DNA of 64,000 nucleotides from Nitrosopumilus sp. GTDB taxonomy: Archaea; Thermoproteota; Nitrososphaeria; Nitrososphaerales; Nitrosopumilaceae. The DNA lies in the NCBI GenBank assembly GCA_965207075.1, contig CBDBLO010000002.1:640001-704000 (forward strand), written 5' to 3'. The translations under genes and the position numbers were made by a program. Positions 24,178-42,942 of the stretch are shown one piece after another (the stretch's first letter is position 1; each line of letters opens with the position of its first letter). Below the pieces are notes generated by a model that saw only the letters and a list, made by a program, of their open reading frames with translations, was not told the DNA's origin and ran no database searches.

Positions 24178-24797
24178 GGTACTCCTGCGAATTCGTGATA
24201 TGTGAATTCACAGTACCTTATTGAGGACGTGGGGGAATGGTGTGTCAGGGGCGTAGTGTGAAGGGATGTTATTTATCAAGTAGGTTTTTCAGTGTGTTTG
24301 CTAGTTCTGTGAGCCTTGTTACGCGTGCCGCTGATTCAGCATGAGCTTCACGGGCAACTTTAAGTTCGTCCATGGTAATTCTGTACAGGCGGTCAATCTG
24401 TAGTCTTTCATCCCCTGTTAGCGTCATTTGTGAATATAGACGATATGTTTATTAAAATGTTATTATAACATACAGTATGAAAAACAAGGACCGTGTTAAA
24501 GAAATTGAAAATAATGCTGCTAGTCCAGTTGTGGCGGACATGGCGCGGCGGCTGAGAGAGGCTATTGAGTCCTGACCTGTCAAATTTAGGTACTACTGCA
24601 AATTCATGATATGTGTATGGCGGCAGTTAGAAATTGAAAAGCTAACGAGAAATGCCCTGTTGTGAAAAATGTCGGAAATTGATGGACTTGGCGGTGTTCT
24701 GGATGATCACCACGCGTGGACGTTGATAAGTCCTTAGTGCCTTGTATAGAATTTGTATATAAAGGCGGATTCTATATCACGAATTCGCAACAGTACG
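24178..24797. mobile_element. nested non-autonomous IS6-type end remnants
   Basis: GGTACTCCTGCGAATTCGTGATA (24178), GGTACTACTGCAAATTCATGATA (24589) and inverted TATCACGAATTCGCAACAGTAC ending ~24796; a copy of the 16802-type end with transposase tail at ~24630-24715. Confidence 0.7.
24269..24427 (-). CDS. small coiled-coil protein (52 aa)
   Basis: Manual translation MTLTGDERLQIDRLYRITMDELKVAREAHAESAARVTRLTELANTLKNLLDK. Confidence 0.5.
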   Translation of the reverse strand: MTLTGDERLQIDRLYRITMDELKVAREAHAESAARVTRLTELANTLKNLLDK

Positions 24798-38440: not shown

Positions 38441-38857
38441 TCAGGACTGCTCTGACATCCGGATTACCTCGTCCCACACGTCCTCGGGGACAGGCATTAC
38501 GGACAGGCGCGATATGCGCAGGAGGTCCCACTCCGCCATCTTCTTGTTCTGTTTGATCTCTGCCAGCGTGACGGGCCGCCTCAGCGGCTTTTTGTATTTC
38601 ACGTCCACCACCACAAACCTCTCGTCTGCCTCCTCGGGGTTTGGATACGGCTTTGACGTCACCTGCATGATCCCGACTGCCCTCTTCTCCTTGCCCGTGT
38701 GGTAGAACAGCACTTGGTCGCCGGGCCTCATGTCGCGGATGTGCTTGAGCGCCAGGTTGTTGTGGACCCCGTCCCACATGGTGGTGCGGTCGCGCCTCAG
38801 CTGCTCAAACGAGTAGGCGCTAGGTTCCTGCTTTGCAAGCCAACGGTTTGCCAACAT
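38441..38857 (-). CDS. EVE domain protein
   Basis: WLAKQEP, WDGVHN, DMRPGDQVLFYH, RLSVMPV. Confidence 0.93.
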   Translation of the reverse strand: MLANRWLAKQEPSAYSFEQLRRDRTTMWDGVHNNLALKHIRDMRPGDQVLFYHTGKEKRAVGIMQVTSKPYPNPEEADERFVVVDVKYKKPLRRPVTLAEIKQNKKMAEWDLLRISRLSVMPVPEDVWDEVIRMSEQS

Positions 38858-39231
38858 GTCGAGTGGCAGGGCCCCCGCTATATGGCTTGGGATTGTGCCC
38901 CGGTTCTGACTCGCGCGGGATCATCGGTGCTTTAGCCAAACCCTCACCAGGTTCTCTAACCGGGGGTCGCCCTCTGTGTAGCACGCCTGGGTGAACCGAA
39001 AGTCACTGGTATCGGTACGATCGCATCATCCCGGTCCGTCTGCGTGCCTGCTCTTGGGCAACATGCGTTGCACAGACGATCTAAAAAGGATTTAGAATGC
39101 GTTACTTCTTGTCTATAGGACATACCCGTCCAACATTTGTGATCTGGGAAGACTAAATGAATTTGATGAGTTCATACAGTCAAACTCCTACATTGGTTGA
39201 TTCCTAGTTCTATTGCGAATTCGTGATATAG

Positions 39232-39352
39232 TCATCGCTTCGGTATCCTCTGGTCGGTTGAGTTCAGGTAGAGTCTCGAGTTCTGGATGATCGTTTTCCA
39301 TTTGTTCGGGCTCTTGGTGGTGATGCCTGCGGCTTCTGCCAAGGTCTTGCGG
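39232..39352 (-). pseudogene. IS6-like transposase C-terminal remnant
   Basis: Manual translation RKTLAEAAGITTKSPNKWKTIIQNSRL. Confidence 0.75.
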
Positions 39353-39353
39353 A

Positions 39354-39545
39354 TCAGTCCCGACAAAAGCTTAAGAGAATAACGAGCTGTACCAAGACGC
39401 TACAATTCAGTTGATTTCCCGATTCTTTACGATTCTTGTACAGTATTCGAACTAGTGAGACTGTTCCTGAACCTGCCTTTCTCGGCCTCGACTCGACCCG
39501 CCGTATCACGTCAGCCTCAATGGTCACGGTGATCTTGTGCTTCAC
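39354..39545 (-). CDS. ribbon-helix-helix-like small protein, possibly truncated
   Basis: MKHKITVTIEADVIRRVES N-terminus. Confidence 0.45.
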   Translation of the reverse strand: MKHKITVTIEADVIRRVESRPRKAGSGTVSLVRILYKNRKESGNQLNCSVLVQLVILLSFCRD

Positions 39546-39611
39546 ACGACAAAGTATGGCAGCGTGGGATTAAAATAAGGTGTGGCAATTCGACATCCTC
39601 GTATAGGAAGA

Positions 39612-40382
39612 ATGAACATGGTGGACAAATCGCGCCTGCGCCGGAGGCTAGCCACATGGCTCAAGCGCCACAAGCATTTGTACTCTTTGTATTCCCACAG
39701 GTTCCGCTATGTGACGTCGCCGTGGCGCGCACTCCCAGACTGGTACATCCTAGGGGCCCCGAAGTGCGCCACCTCTTCGCTGTACTGGTATATGGTGCGG
39801 CACCCGGACATAGACCCCGGTATCACGAAAGAGCCCTCGTTCTACTATACGCGGTGGGAATACGGTGAGTACCACTACAGGTCCATGTTCCCGATGCGGA
39901 GGCGCGGAAGACTCACGGGTGATGCCAGCGCTAATTACCTGGCGCACCCGCTGCCCGTCGCCGAACGCGCGCATGAGATGACCCCGGATGCAAAACTCAT
40001 AGTGATGATGCGCGACCCGATGGATCGGGCATACTCCCACTACCACATGAAGCGCCGCCGCGGGGTGGAGACCGAGCCGACGTTCGAGCGCGCGCTGGAG
40101 CTTGAGGCGCAACGGCACGCCGTGTTCATGGGTGGTGACCTGAGGGACGACCCGTGGCACATGTACATGGGGCACGGGGACTATGAGCACCACATTGAGC
40201 GGTGGAAGAAATGGTTCCCGGACGACTCCATACTGGCCATAGACTTTGACGAGTTCATCATCGACCCGCATGCCGTGCTTGCAAGGGTGTGGGATCACAT
40301 AGGCGTCAAACAAGTGCGACTGCCAGACATGGAGCCGCGGAACGTGGGTAGGTACCCTCCGCGGCAATCGGCCAAGGATTGA
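39612..40382 (+). CDS. PAPS-dependent sulfotransferase
   Basis: GAPKCATSSL (5'-PSB), KEPSFY, RDPMDRAYSHY (3'-PB). Confidence 0.92.
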   Translation: MNMVDKSRLRRRLATWLKRHKHLYSLYSHRFRYVTSPWRALPDWYILGAPKCATSSLYWYMVRHPDIDPGITKEPSFYYTRWEYGEYHYRSMFPMRRRGRLTGDASANYLAHPLPVAERAHEMTPDAKLIVMMRDPMDRAYSHYHMKRRRGVETEPTFERALELEAQRHAVFMGGDLRDDPWHMYMGHGDYEHHIERWKKWFPDDSILAIDFDEFIIDPHAVLARVWDHIGVKQVRLPDMEPRNVGRYPPRQSAKD

Positions 40383-40419
40383 GAGTCACGAATTCGCAAC
40401 AGAATGCATGATACACCTA

Positions 40420-40580
40420 CGCTGTACACGTCGCGATGGAGCGACCCCTGGGGTTCTATGGGCCAAGCACCCTCGCAACAGAATGGGACAGTCCGAGCTG
40501 CTGTATGACTGGGCTGCGCGTCCTGATGATTCATGCAGCTTCCGTTTCATCAGAGACATCCGCAAGGGAGGTGAGAAGAA
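40420..40580 (+). ncRNA. putative IS110 bridge/seek RNA region
   Basis: Target matches GGTTCTAT (40452) and TCGCAACAGAA (40473); donor matches GTATG (40503) and TCATGCA (40531); ends approximate. Confidence 0.7.
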
Positions 40581-40583
40581 AGG

Positions 40584-41684
40584 ATGAAGATAAGCATTGG
40601 AATCGACATTGGAAAGAGAAAATGTGACTACTGCATAGTCAACGGAAGGGAAAGGATCTTGGAACGCGGGCAGTACTTTAACACACAGGCGGACGCAAAG
40701 CAGTGAGCGCGAACGATACTCGGCAAATGCAGCAGGACGGGAAGGTGCACGGCCGCGTGCGAGACTGCCGCGAACATGTGGATTACGACGGTGGATACGT
40801 TTGAGCGCGCCGGCATTGCAATCAAGCTTGCCAACGCGTACAGGATGGCGCTGATCAACAAGACCGGGAAGAAGACCGACAGGATAAACGCAGAGAAGAT
40901 AGCGCAGATACTCAGAATGGGCTCGATACCAGAGTGCTACGTGCCGCCGGTATACACGCGCGGCGTCAGGAACATGGTGCGGCAGCACGTGCGGTTGGCG
41001 CAGGCCAGGATCAGGGTGGTAAATCAGGTTCACAACCTGCTTGACGCGCACGGCAGGGCCGTGCACGCGGCCAACACGTACTCGCTCAAGGCGCTGTCCT
41101 ATCTGGACGCGCTCAGCCTTGGCGACGCGCCGGACGACTTTATGCTGAGGCAGTGCGTCAGAAGGATAAGGCACTACAAGCGAGATTACGGAGATTGACA
41201 AGCAGCTGGAGGCCGAAGCCACCCAAAACGAGGATGCAAGGCTGCTTGCCAGCATGACCGGCGTTGGGACGTACACGGCCATACTCTTGGCATCTGAGAT
41301 ATCCGAGATATCCGAGATATCAAGGTCTGAGACTCCCAAGCAGATGATCTCGTGGGCCGGATTCTGTCCGACCGTCAGGCAGTCGGACAAGGAGACGCGC
41401 CTTGGGAGGATAAAGAAGATGGGCCCGACAGCCTAGTCAACTGGGCGATGTGCGAGGCCGCCAACGTGGCAGTCAGGTACGACGCGAGAATGAAGGCCGC
41501 ATACGAGGCTACCAGCAGGAGGCACGCGGGCAAGCACATGCTTGAAATTGTCGTGATGGCCCACAAGATGGTTCCCATAATGTGGCACATGCTGAAAACC
41601 AGGATCTCCCTAGAGTCACGCAACGAGGATCTGTACAGCCGCAAGCTGGCCGGGATGCAAAAAAAGCACCAGAACAAGGACTAG
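40584..41684 (+). pseudogene. IS110 DEDD recombinase, inactivated
   Basis: IGIDIGK, ACET, KKTDRINA, TGVG, SWAGFCPTVRQS; in-frame TGA at 40704 and later frameshifts. Confidence 0.92.
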
Positions 41685-41859
41685 CCGTTGTGCGTGTACA
41701 TGTACGGACCAACCCTAGCGTCAGCTATAAACTACGCACTACCCACCCTAGGTGTGAGACGGACGCAAGATCGGAAAAATCCGGTTGGTACGCTCCGGTG
41801 CTATCATAGGCGTACCTGATTCCTTAAAAGTTAAATCAAGTCGGTGGTAAAATTTTTAC

Positions 41860-42942
41860 ATGTGCAGAAATACGCGGATTTTAATCGGTACCATTAGAAA
41901 CAGAATTTTTCACGCCCATAACCTCTCTGCGGCCCTTTCTAAGCTGGGAGTAGAATGCAAGGTAGTGCTGGACTCCGAAACATATGACGGATTTCCATAT
42001 CGCAAAACGTTCCAGACTCGACGCCGAATACACAAGCTCTTTGATGAGTTCAGACCCAGCGCCGTGATGGGCACCTATCCAAACCTCTTCTGCATAGCTA
42101 CACTCGACAGAAACATACCGCTGCTCTTACAACTGAGAGGGGATTATTGGTCGGAGATGAAGTGGCTGAGAGATACGATATGCCGAAGCCCACTGAAGAG
42201 ATCAGTACTGTACTTCAAGGATAGGATCGCCCGTAGATGTTTTGCAGAATCGGCCATGATTCTACCAGTATCCGACTACCTCAAAGGCATAGTGGATCAG
42301 AAGTATCCAGACAAGTCGACCACTATATACACTGGAATGAATCCCGACATATGGAACGGGGACAGTGCAAGTGCAGTAGGTGATGTGGGGATACGCGTGG
42401 ACATCAAACACCCCTGTGTAGGACTGTTGCAGAATGCCAATGTATGGGGCAAGGCACGCGAGATGCTAGTGCTACCCAAAGTGATGAAGGCTTTGCCACA
42501 TGTCACGTTTTACTGGGCGGGGGATGGCATGTACATGGATCGCGTACTCCCAGATCTTCTCAAGTGCGACAATTTTGTATGGCTTGGGAACTTGGACGGT
42601 CAGGACACCGTGCGTAAGTACCTTGCAGAGATAGACGTGTACGCTCTAGTCAGTGGCGCGGACATGCTCCCCAATTCAGTAAGGGAGGCGGAGCTCATGG
42701 AGAAGCCCGTGATAGCAACCAACGTAGGAGGCGTGTCCGAGGCTATGCAGGATGGAGTCACGGGCTACTTGGTCGAGAGTGGCAATGCCACCCAGATGAC
42801 GAGCAGAATTCATGATTTGTTGGACAACGAGAAAACATCTAGAAAAATGGGCCAAATGGGGAAGAAGTTAGTTGAGGAGAAGTTCAACTGGGACAGAATA
42901 GCCTCGGATTTCATCAAGGCAGTGACACCTGCACTAAGATAA
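41860..42942 (+). CDS. glycosyltransferase family 4
   Basis: DMLPNSVREA...KPVIATNVGGVSE...DGVTGYLV. Confidence 0.92.
   Translation: MCRNTRILIGTIRNRIFHAHNLSAALSKLGVECKVVLDSETYDGFPYRKTFQTRRRIHKLFDEFRPSAVMGTYPNLFCIATLDRNIPLLLQLRGDYWSEMKWLRDTICRSPLKRSVLYFKDRIARRCFAESAMILPVSDYLKGIVDQKYPDKSTTIYTGMNPDIWNGDSASAVGDVGIRVDIKHPCVGLLQNANVWGKAREMLVLPKVMKALPHVTFYWAGDGMYMDRVLPDLLKCDNFVWLGNLDGQDTVRKYLAEIDVYALVSGADMLPNSVREAELMEKPVIATNVGGVSEAMQDGVTGYLVESGNATQMTSRIHDLLDNEKTSRKMGQMGKKLVEEKFNWDRIASDFIKAVTPALR

Follow-up and report, generated by a model that had tools for sequence, protein, structure and literature searches.

The window, which is the whole stretch of 64,000 nucleotides that was analysed, comes from an ammonia-oxidising archaeon of the genus Nitrosopumilus and contains one mobile element inserted into the end of another. 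The outer or host element is an IS6-derived element of 1.2 kb that lacks a transposase, carries a sulfotransferase gene and is bounded by an 8-bp target duplication. Its right terminal inverted repeat (TIR) is interrupted by an IS110-family element, copy c1. The features of the host element are as follows.

39198..39205, no strand: left copy of the target-site duplication, TGATTCCT, by direct reading; identical to 41817-41824
39206..39226, + strand: left TIR, AGTTCTATTGCGAATTCGTGA, by direct reading
39242..39349, + strand: remnant of an IS6 end, 82% identical to G000:C2:1024446-1024553
39582..40382, + strand: passenger gene for a sulfotransferase of 266 aa (Pfam Sulfotransfer_1, 50.4 bits, and Sulfotransfer_3, 46.9 bits, each above its cut-off)
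40386..40402, - strand: the 17 inner nt of the split right TIR, TCACGAATTCGCAACAG in the top strand, by direct reading; the final 2 nt, AG, are the crossover core, placed by homology with the empty site of copy c2
41813..41816, - strand: tip of the split right TIR, which reads TACC (reverse complement GGTA), by direct reading
41817..41824, no strand: right copy of the target-site duplication, TGATTCCT, by direct reading

On the right side, direct reading gives TCACGAATTCGCAACAGAA at 40386-40404, CC at 41815-16 and then TGATTCCT at 41817-24. An earlier note on this DNA had rejoined the two parts of the right TIR into a repeat that shares 19 of its 21 positions with the left TIR, and had recognised the 8 bp beyond it as the same 8 bp that precede the left TIR (TGATTCCT). 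Both readings are true to the sequence.

A target-site duplication of 8 bp is a trait of the IS6 family. The genome has a single DDE_Tnp_IS240 gene above the cut-off, the transposase ORF C2:1024436-1025368 (PF13610, 47.5 bits vs the 27-bit cut-off), whose best NCBIfam match, transpos_IS6, reaches 108.8 bits and lies below the 125-bit cut-off. The TIR GGTACTGGTGCAAATTCGG adjoins this ORF, and the left 110 bp of the host element are 82% identical to the end of this IS6 copy; the matching segment, G000:C2:1024446-1024553, lies within the 3′ end of the transposase gene. The 8-bp duplication, the left end that resembles the end of the DDE_Tnp_IS240 gene and the similar TIR support the view that the host element is derived from an IS6 element. 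Among its long ORFs, only that of the sulfotransferase matches a family; the host element codes no transposase of its own and is non-autonomous. The left TIR is one of 39 sites in the genome that lie within 5 mismatches of GGTACTGTTGCGAATTCGTGA. In the TIR-bounded elements C2:712458-714347 and C2:1104225-1107916, no transposase family was found among the long ORFs, and a DUF4344 protein was the only one identified. A search of 151 genomes did not find an uninterrupted homologue of the host element; the matches were only partial, to the sulfotransferase part (71%, in G100) and to the IS6-end part, and c1 is therefore without an empty site of its own.

The inserted element and its boundaries

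The features of the inserted element are as follows.

40403..41812, + strand: IS110-family element, copy c1, 1410 bp; ends placed by homology with copies of known empty site and with 70 aligned left ends
40435..40550, + strand: bridge/seekRNA gene, match to model R1 (116.8 bits)
40449..40459, + strand: 5′ side of the target loop, TGGGGTTCTAT, which complements the top strand of the core and right flank
40473..40484, + strand: target loop, 3′ side, TCGCAACAG plus a constant AAT, of the same sense as the left flank; effective guide GCAACAG at 40475-40481
40496..40540, + strand: donor loop with the stem AGCTGC/GCAGCT; 5′ side TGTATGACT at 40502-10, then a hairpin, then 3′ side TGATGATTCA at 40524-33
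40584..41684, + strand: DEDD recombinase pseudogene with in-frame stops and two frameshifts
41726..41731, + strand: conserved, outward-facing TATA-like box, AGCTATAAA, ~86 nt from the right end, as read in c1
41805..41812, + strand: right-end tail CATAGG and core copy CG (AG expected), aligned with the right ends of c2, c3 and c4 and with the tails of 19 copies

The assignment to the IS110 family that the earlier note had made, and its statement that the recombinase of c1 is broken, both hold. The N-terminal piece of the c1 product matches DEDD_Tnp_IS110 weakly (20.3 bits, below the 29-bit cut-off). Copy c2, the DNA of which is 82% identical to that of c1, matches Transposase_20 (73.5 bits) and DEDD_Tnp_IS110 (51.8 bits), both above the cut-off, and an intact relative of 364 aa, L087, matches the NCBIfam model NF033542, 'IS110 family RNA-guided transposase', with 232 bits vs a cut-off of 140 bits. 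The closest solved structures are the transposases of ISCro4 and IS621. Intact ORFs are present in 32 of 75 copies, and the two copies L074 and L087 of genome G156 have ORFs of 364 aa. For the single in-frame TAG of c2 we considered a tRNA-Pyl and rejected it, as ARAGORN found none; the TAG is read as a nonsense mutation. A metagenome scan with the c2 protein returned one short contig (L034), which lacks the left flank.

The boundaries of c1 are set by the empty sites of two relatives. For c2, an intact IS66-like copy reads GGTTAG|GTTCC, and the AG core is found at both junctions; for the L037 lineage, an intact IS5-family TIR reads TAGTCTGTTGCACAAC, and the core is TG. According to these empty sites, an element of this family starts with AA(T/C) and finishes with CATAGG followed by a 2-nt copy of the core; inverted repeats at the tips are absent, as is any target duplication past the short shared core. 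Because the empty sites put the element start at AAT, the insertion point of c1, determined by homology, lies 4 bp from the TIR tip, with CAG on its left and TACC on its right. The core copy at the right junction of c1 is CG instead of AG. The interval 40405-41814 and the distance of 2 bp from the tip, as originally read, are accordingly revised to 40403-41812 and 4 bp, and the rebuilt TIR becomes GGTACTGTTGCG, which is of the GGTACTG type, the commonest variant in the genome. TGAT was also considered as a 4-bp core repeat of c1 and was rejected, because it belongs to the conserved left end in all of the copies and neither c2 nor c3 has it in the right flank.

Both junctions of c1 are bridged by Logan contigs, the left one in runs of two studies with 0 differences (X1 record 1, X3 record 9) and the right one in X1 record 8 and X4 record 23, although some of these runs may come from the window's own sample; the junctions are thus not assembly artefacts, a possibility that had been raised against the first reading. 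Of the 19 copies for which the right end was located, 13 have a TATA-like hexamer at -87 to -89 relative to that end, and this box may be a promoter.

The guide RNA and its agreement with the flanks

A covariance model was built from 8 copies and used to search 151 genomes of the genus, and it matched ~100 copies in 23 of them. In the consensus structure of 75 aligned copies, 91.9% of the cells are paired, and 23 of the 30 pairs have changed on both sides; none of 500 shuffles reached these values, and slid controls were 29-58% paired. The single-sequence fold of the left end of c1 is not better than that of shuffled sequences (z = +1.12; 176 of 200 shuffles fold as well), and the structure therefore rests on the alignment. 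A scan of 38500-42500 against Rfam, with E up to 1, gave no match.

The left end had been proposed to hold a target-binding loop, with TCGCAACAGAA at 40473-83 and GGTTCTAT at 40452-59 as its guide strings. Both strings are present, the first of them at the guide position of the family, and the target-loop strings of c1 are GCAACAG and GGGGTTCT. The stem GACCCC...GGGACAGTC that was thought to enclose the loop is replaced in the alignment by a CCC/GGG pairing and a separate closing helix of 7 bp.

The guides of the first loop covary with both flanks, and on each side the agreement exceeds that of all 2000 permutations. In c1, the 3′-side guide equals the left flank (40394-40402) at 9 of 9 positions. 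Over 69 non-redundant copies, agreement between the 3′ side and the left flank averages 6.52 of 9 positions vs 3.68 ± 0.15 in permuted pairs (maximum 4.16 in 2000), and the 5′ side, taken as its reverse complement, agrees with the right flank of 18 copies at 3.94 of 6 positions vs 1.85 ± 0.31 (maximum 3.11 in 2000); because the copies are interrelated, these permutation figures overstate independence. The agreement with the left flank is 71-97% at positions -7 to -1 vs 14-23% at -8 and -9 in the same 69 copies. The right end was located, by the criteria used, in 19 of the 75 copies, and c1, c2 and c3 are not among these 19. The 5′-side guide of c1 predicts AG+AACC vs AG+TACC at the revised site, a match of 3 of 4 positions at the TIR tip. 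The 3′-side guide of c3 agrees with its flank at 5 of 9 positions, with a contiguous match at the last 3 nt only, and the 5′-side guide of c2 fits the right flank only at an offset of 2 nt. The right junction of c2 has 3 extra nt.

The donor loop of other lineages covaries with the element ends: its 3′ side agrees with the right-end tail at 5.79 of 6 positions, a value reached by 2 of 2000 permutations, and the match of its 5′ side to nt 2-6 of the left end was reached by none of 2000. In c1, the 5′ side can pair with nt 2-6 of the element (ATGCA) with one U-G wobble; the 3′ side, GATGATTCA, agrees with the element's own right-end tail at 1 of 6 positions by hand count, and the same is true of the other three lineage members that are available in full. 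GTATG and TCATGCA had been put forward as matches to the donor junction, which the present analysis does not support. After the revision of the boundaries, GTATG no longer falls across the circle junction, and TCATGCA is mostly conserved stem set against a conserved element end.

Targets across copies and genomes

The CAG|TACC-type junction of the c1 lineage occurs 7 times in 4 of the 151 genomes, with 0 control hits. At least four distinct flanks show use of the same position and orientation in an IS6-type TIR, namely that of c1, that of the shared locus of c3 and two from G096, and besides c1 there are at least four further insertions at this point of the TIR; c3 lies at CAG|TACG, and a fragment, c4, at ...|TACC. 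Sister lineages have been retargeted to IS66-like and IS5-family TIRs, and the IS5-family TIR motif is the target of several lineages in different genomes. Of 70 non-redundant copies, 24 have a left flank within the TIRs of three IS families, and the left flanks of the other 46 are not assignable to a TIR. The proposal that the element is aimed at IS6-type TIRs is thus upheld for the c1 lineage and does not extend to the whole family.

Discussion

We consider c1 very probably to be a dead IS110-family insertion sequence that a two-loop RNA of its left end guided into the right TIR of an IS6-type element, where recombination took place at an AG core 4 bp from the tip. The recombinase, when active, would have used an RNA from the left end of the element that has two internal loops. 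The second loop would recognise both ends of its own element in the circular, excised form, and the first loop of the c1 lineage appears to be written against the end-repeat of IS6-type elements, which would explain why c1 recombined into the right TIR of a transposase-less sulfotransferase carrier. The right TIR having been split by c1, the IS6 transposase should be stopped from using that end, and c1 may thus have acted as an immobiliser that blocks movement of the host element. Expression of the RNA and formation of the circle are expected under this model; a joined (circle) or empty-site form of c1 was not found in the public-run contigs examined, and the public runs listed as containing the c1 locus include no RNA run.

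A broader and rather doubtful extension of this model would be a genus-wide guild of RNA-guided hyperparasites, the guides of which change time and again to keep up with the TIRs of IS5, IS6 and IS66 elements and which would act as a heritable, sequence-programmed brake on mobile elements. It is likewise unlikely that TIR targeting is a selected anti-transposon function, either a host-benefiting brake or hyperparasitism, in which guides track TIR variants in an arms race. The TIRs of IS5, IS6 and IS66 elements have all been struck, the variants GGTTCT, GGTACT and GGTGCT are found in guides and in TIRs alike, and a split TIR should disable that end, judging by how DDE transposases use their ends. 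However, those copies of the c1 lineage that were seen whole or nearly whole are all decayed, and the TIR copies of the genome are mostly unoccupied (39 sites vs 3 occupied). Moreover, 'safe' sites that are present in many copies and travel horizontally account for the TIR habit without any benefit to the host.

The original boundaries are quite unlikely to be correct. They would give an element of 40405-41814 at a distance of 2 bp from the end of a GGTTCTGTTGCG TIR, with a perfect GGTTCT guide and with GTATG and TCATGCA reading the circle junction GGCGTA|TGCATGA. These ends also rebuild a TIR of 21 nt with the 8-bp duplication, the left TIR of the host element itself has T at position 4, GGTTCT variants occur elsewhere in the genome, and the 5′-side guide of c1 would match at 6 of 6 positions. 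However, both of the lineages with known empty sites start with AA(T/C) directly after the guide match, and boundaries of the 40405-41814 type, when applied to c2, predict TTAGAAGGTTCC vs the intact site TTAGGTTCC. In addition, the AAT that closes the 3′ side of the target loop is constant in nearly all of the 75 copies irrespective of the flank, c3 is followed by TACG and c4 by TACC, and GGTACTG is the commonest type of TIR. The uninterrupted end of the host element would read ...CAACAGAACC under the 2-bp reading and ...CAACAGTACC under the 4-bp reading.

We regard as improbable the view that c1 belongs to a generalist element for which the TIR was one incidental site among many, the copies in transposon ends having been retained since they are harmless there. 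Guides are reprogrammable, so any target is possible; one lineage (L100) is inserted in a microsatellite, and nearly two-thirds of the left flanks (46 of 70) have no TIR assignment. Yet the TIR is written out in the guide: in c1 the two agree at 9 of 9 positions, and in L099 the string GGGGTACTGT equals the TIR tip. The repeated use of one position and orientation in the IS6-type TIR, the share of copies in the TIRs of three IS families and the convergence of several lineages on the IS5-family motif also speak for targeting. As for the idea that the internal copy of the flank is a by-product of imprecise excision capture or gene conversion, c1 by itself cannot tell a guide from a captured duplicate, but the matching string is always found in one and the same loop of a conserved, covarying structure, at a depth of ~70 nt within the element. 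The match covers 7 nt and breaks off sharply at -8, and a second segment, which complements the opposite flank, goes with it; we give this idea almost no credence.

The layout of the element is a hybrid, in which the position of the guide RNA, upstream of the recombinase gene, is that of IS110 and the subterminal repeats and guide order are those of IS1111. Subterminal inverted repeats of ~7-17 bp, an IS1111 trait, are perfect over 10 of 10 positions in c2 (TGATAACCCC/GGGGTTATCA), match at ~22 of 25 in L037 and are imperfect, over 9-10 bp, in c1 (TGATACACC at 40409-40417 and GGTGCTATCA at 41797-41806). The segment complementary to the top strand is 5′ of that complementary to the bottom strand, as in the IS1111 rule described in PMC11187229. 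The RNA of IS1111 elements lies downstream of the recombinase gene, whereas here it is upstream of the ORF in 75 of 75 copies, 30-150 nt from the left end.

This locus is an archaeal (Nitrosopumilaceae) addition to the RNA-guided IS110/IS1111 recombinases, and the accepted working of RNA-guided IS systems is unchanged by it. Both guide RNAs and the targeting of TIRs have been described before in IS110/IS1111 elements, so that the archaeal family adds to a known kind. The ~100 natural copies, with variable guides on a constant scaffold, form a ready-made natural reprogramming series, and since the RNA has no Rfam match, the covariance model could be used to annotate such loci. The targeting of transposon ends, known from a few bacterial elements, recurs in archaea against three IS families.

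An element of this kind had been thought undescribed. For archaea this stands within the literature searched, in which nothing relevant was found on TIR targeting by IS110 elements of archaea or Thaumarchaeota, and the supplementary target lists of both 2024 papers (PMC11187229 and PMC11208160) may include the family. For bacteria it does not stand, as IS4321/IS5075 and IS1383 are reported to be TIR-targeting IS1111/IS110 elements, and ISEc21 also targets another IS. Like the bacterial TIR-targeting elements, the archaeal family consists of DEDD-recombinase insertion sequences with subterminal inverted repeats that occupy one fixed position and orientation in the TIR of another transposon. It differs from them in its archaeal host, in its IS6-type victims, with IS5 and IS66 TIRs in sister lineages, and in the guide RNA upstream of the recombinase gene.

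The IS1111-type seekRNA elements ISEc11, ISPa11 and ISKpn4 (Siddiquee et al., 2024; PMC11187229) share with our family the order of the guide segments, subterminal inverted repeats and the GLxPxxxxSG motif, which we also read in the recombinase studied here. Unlike these elements, as that paper presents them, the archaeal family has its non-coding region upstream of the gene; the same paper reports exceptions with an upstream non-coding region among IS1111-type elements, for example ISMtsp17. ISEc21 is similar in that it belongs to the RNA-guided IS110 family and is naturally directed at other insertion sequences, namely at conserved codons of IS3-family transposase genes (PMC11187229), and natural retargeting has been described in its relative ISMch6 (PMC11187229). 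As described there, ISEc21 differs in that its target lies within a transposase gene rather than a TIR and in that it has the IS110 guide order. The bridge RNA of IS621 (Durrant et al., 2024; PMC11208160) is also a left-end RNA with target and donor loops that reads both strands and uses a 2-nt core overlap; in this comparison, the AG core of the c1 family is CT on the other strand. Unlike in IS621, the 5′ side of which pairs with the bottom strand according to the description in PMC11208160, the order of the guide segments is reversed in the archaeal family, which also has long subterminal repeats (10-25 bp) and a recombinase of weak similarity to that of IS621 (36.9 bits).

Results

An inactivated IS110-type insert in a cargo element

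The right terminal inverted repeat (TIR) of an IS6-derived sulfotransferase carrier is split by a 1410-bp insert, here termed c1, whose reading frame resembles IS110-type recombinases and is disrupted by two frameshifts as well as stop codons. The host element comprises the following features, the gene being assigned by Pfam and the remainder by direct reading:

39198-39205 and 41817-41824: 8-bp duplication TGATTCCT flanking the element
39206-39226: left TIR AGTTCTATTGCGAATTCGTGA
39582-40382: sulfotransferase, the sole clear gene
from 40386: interrupted inverted copy of the TIR, right end of the element

Direct reading bears out every string listed in the earlier note, as well as its statement that the recombinase is inactivated. 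That note had also named an assembly artefact as a possible refutation. Logan contigs of public runs span both the left junction (X1 record 1 and X3 record 9, two studies, without difference) and the right junction (X1 record 8, X4 record 23), although some of these runs may represent the genome's own source sample. Therefore, the arrangement is not an assembly artefact.

The ORFs of the host element include no transposase gene, and the element is non-autonomous. The description "IS6-type cargo element" is fair because GGTACTGTTGCGAATTCGTGA occurs at 39 genome sites with at most five mismatches, and because a repeat similar to the host TIR, GGTACTGGTGCAAATTCGG, adjoins the only gene in the genome with an IS6-type DDE domain over the Pfam cut-off (DDE_Tnp_IS240, 47.5 bits vs. 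27), the end of which is 82% identical to window positions 39242-39349. The best NCBIfam match of this gene is transpos_IS6 (108.8 bits, under the 125-bit cut-off). Furthermore, other pairs of IS6-type repeats in the genome likewise bound ORFs without a transposase family, and one pair encloses a DUF4344 protein. The window holds three additional IS6-type repeats, at 24178-24198 (+), 24589-24609 (+) and 24777-24797 (-), which would delimit two short units (620 and 209 bp). Beyond the window, four overlapping "tRNA-???" calls by ARAGORN in 60-bp steps (contig C2 of this genome, G000:C2:712737-713009) are a tandem repeat inside a 1.9-kb repeat-bounded unit whose long ORFs have no Pfam family.

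Related copies and a two-loop guide RNA

The search for other copies suggested in the earlier note recovered three in the same genome and relatives in Nitrosopumilaceae/Thaumarchaeota MAGs. The full-length copy c2 is 82% identical, and its ORF, which carries Transposase_20 and DEDD_Tnp_IS110 (Pfam), has one in-frame TAG (codon 27); c3 has an internal deletion, and c4 is a right-end fragment, with smaller fragments besides. A 45-bp piece of the donor-loop region lies at G000:C2:539336-539380, and a weak RNA-model match on a small contig (G000:C1:22632-22749, 45.9 bits) has a guide that is decayed, and lacks a long ORF.

Eight left ends were aligned, yielding a two-loop consensus structure and the covariance model that the note had proposed. 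Approximately 100 matches were obtained in 23 of the 151 genus genomes searched (at most 16 per genome), and 70 loci were fetched, giving 75 aligned copies. An ORF of at least 330 aa is retained in 32 of the 75; the intact 364-aa ORF of locus L087 scores 232 bits with the NCBIfam model "IS110 family RNA-guided transposase" (cut-off 140). In the 75-copy alignment, 91.9% of cells are paired (29-58% in slid-partner controls) and both partners have changed in 23 of 30 pairs, with none of 500 shuffles equalling the alignment, figures biased in favour of the model to which the alignment was fitted. The structure thus co-varies. No Rfam family matches the guide RNA, and the single-sequence fold of the c1 RNA is not better than that of shuffled sequence.

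Covariation between guides and flanking DNA

In all copies, the first (target) loop presents two variable strings within a constant scaffold. A motif search placed the left end in 71 copies out of 75, with that of c2 set manually; exclusion of a duplicate and of one copy whose loop string was short left 69. The 9 nt ahead of the constant AAT on the 3′ side share 6.52 of 9 positions with the left flank, compared with 3.68 ± 0.15 (maximum 4.16) in 2000 permutations. For the right end, which the criteria applied located in 19 of the 75 copies (18 non-redundant, c1-c3 outside the set), the reverse-complemented 5′ side shares 3.94 of 6 positions with the 6 nt past the core (permuted 1.85 ± 0.31, maximum 3.11). 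Because the copies are kin, these permutation figures overstate independence; nevertheless, separate lineages have separate guides and separate flanks. Agreement is 71-97% at -7 to -1 and falls to 14-23% at -8 and -9; the 3′-side guide therefore spans 7 nt, two of which form the core, TG in the majority of copies but AG in the c1/c2 group. The c1 3′ side, TCGCAACAG, equals its flank at 9/9 positions, and the guide reading of the earlier note was right in substance. Covariation of the second (donor) loop with the element's own ends is weaker than that of the first loop. Locus L100 (G152:C1:~1053046) lies between (TTG)n and (TGTGGT)n microsatellites, which its guides spell at 9/9 and 5/6 positions.

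The insertion point of c1

The ends of the family are fixed by empty sites from two lineages. Copy c2 interrupts an IS66-like element at its right repeat, and the corresponding stretch in a second, intact copy reads GGTTAG|GTTCCGC. Four copies in one MAG (L037, L038, L040, L042) are set in TAGTCTGTTG|CACAAC, a sequence with 26 occurrences (1 control hit) whose inverted pairs, ~1.27 kb apart, enclose an IS5-family transposase gene (NF033579, 148.5 bits vs. 140); L037 and L042 occupy one IS5-family repeat and L038 the other. In both lineages, the element starts with AA(T/C)... immediately past the guide match and ends with CATAGG(+n) plus a core copy. By this homology, c1 occupies 40403-41812, its target was ...TCGCAAC-AG|TACC, and the uninterrupted host TIR read GGTACTGTTGCG, the genome's commonest type. 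The insertion thus lies 4 bp from the TIR tip, rather than the 2 bp proposed earlier, a solution that arose because the element's initial AA completes AGAACC by chance. Three features of c1 deviate from the ideal: its 5′ guide predicts AACC where the site is TACC, its right core copy is CG, and its donor loop fails on the 3′ side to match the right-end tail. The donor-junction matches reported earlier also need correcting. At c2, the right junction has three extra bases (GAG) relative to the empty site (L002 1480-1500, 2885-2915; G000:C2:~787010-788440), and the 5′-side guide fits the right flank only at a 2-nt offset.

Repeated targeting of IS6-type repeats

The c3 site reads ...GAATTCGCGACAG|...|TACG, and TACC directly follows the c4 right end. 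A junction pattern of repeat interior plus element start occurs seven times in 4 of the 151 genomes (0 control hits). Three of the seven are a single locus in three species: L003/L161 (G000:C2:~1309930), L157 (G152:C1:~1576930) and L160 (G112:C120:~3100). Because the outer flank is the same in all three, c3 is an old, inherited insertion. The guide strings at this locus have since drifted apart (CTGAGGCAG in L003/L161 and L160, CTGGGACAG in L157). The 5′ guide of the G152 copy, GGGGTACTGT, is identical to the TIR tip. The two G096 junctions have different outer flanks. The remaining G112 junction, L156 (G112:C4:~1900), joins an IS6-type repeat interior to the first 8-9 nt of an IS110-type left end, followed by unrelated sequence; it represents a relic left by truncation or else a coincidental match. 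Judged from the recurrence of c3, c4 and junction-pattern sites, the c1 lineage has struck the same TIR position at least four times in constant orientation, which agrees with the earlier proposal that it is aimed at IS6-type TIRs.

In the wider family, left-flank patterns of 70 non-redundant copies assign 20 to an IS5-family repeat (at two different positions), three to IS6-type repeats and one to an IS66-like repeat, with 46 unassigned. The IS5-type motif TAGYYTGTTKCAYAAC is abundant in G157, G163, G149, G160 and G002 (11-75 hits vs. 0-2 in the control), most strongly in G157 (75) and G163 (53), and occurs as full elements and miniature pairs, many inverted pairs being merely 64-140 bp apart. 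The IS6-aimed guide GCAACAG (c1, 40475-40481) and the IS5-aimed TCTGTTG (L037) read the same CTGTTGC motif, common to both repeat types, on opposite strands, and with respect to the repeat tip these lineages integrate in opposing orientations. In 13 of the 19 copies whose right end was located, a conserved, outward-facing box (AGCTATAAA / AGCTTTAAA) is present at a distance of 87-89 nt from that end; c1 (41720-41731) carries it as well, and it recurs at this position in L037, L055, L057, L074, L080, L084, L087 and others. This box looks like an archaeal TATA box, which could promote transcription of the guide RNA and recombinase only via the circle junction, or that of flanking DNA when integrated.

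Discussion

The c1 observation is real. The earlier note had considered such an element undescribed. In the literature searched, no archaeal case of a TIR-targeting IS110 came up; however, the end-repeat of another transposon is a known target of IS4321/IS5075 and IS1383, and ISEc21 targets IS3 transposase genes (PMC11187229). It is plausible, as a hypothesis, that the element may act as a brake on IS6-type elements. Bridge RNAs/seekRNAs of IS110/IS1111 elements are established (PMC11208160, PMC11187229). The Nitrosopumilus family resembles IS110/IS621 in that the RNA lies upstream of the gene, and resembles the IS1111 elements described in PMC11187229 in its guide order and subterminal repeats, a mixed layout of which the same paper mentions exceptional cases. 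The c1 family is therefore an archaeal addition to an already known kind of RNA-guided element.
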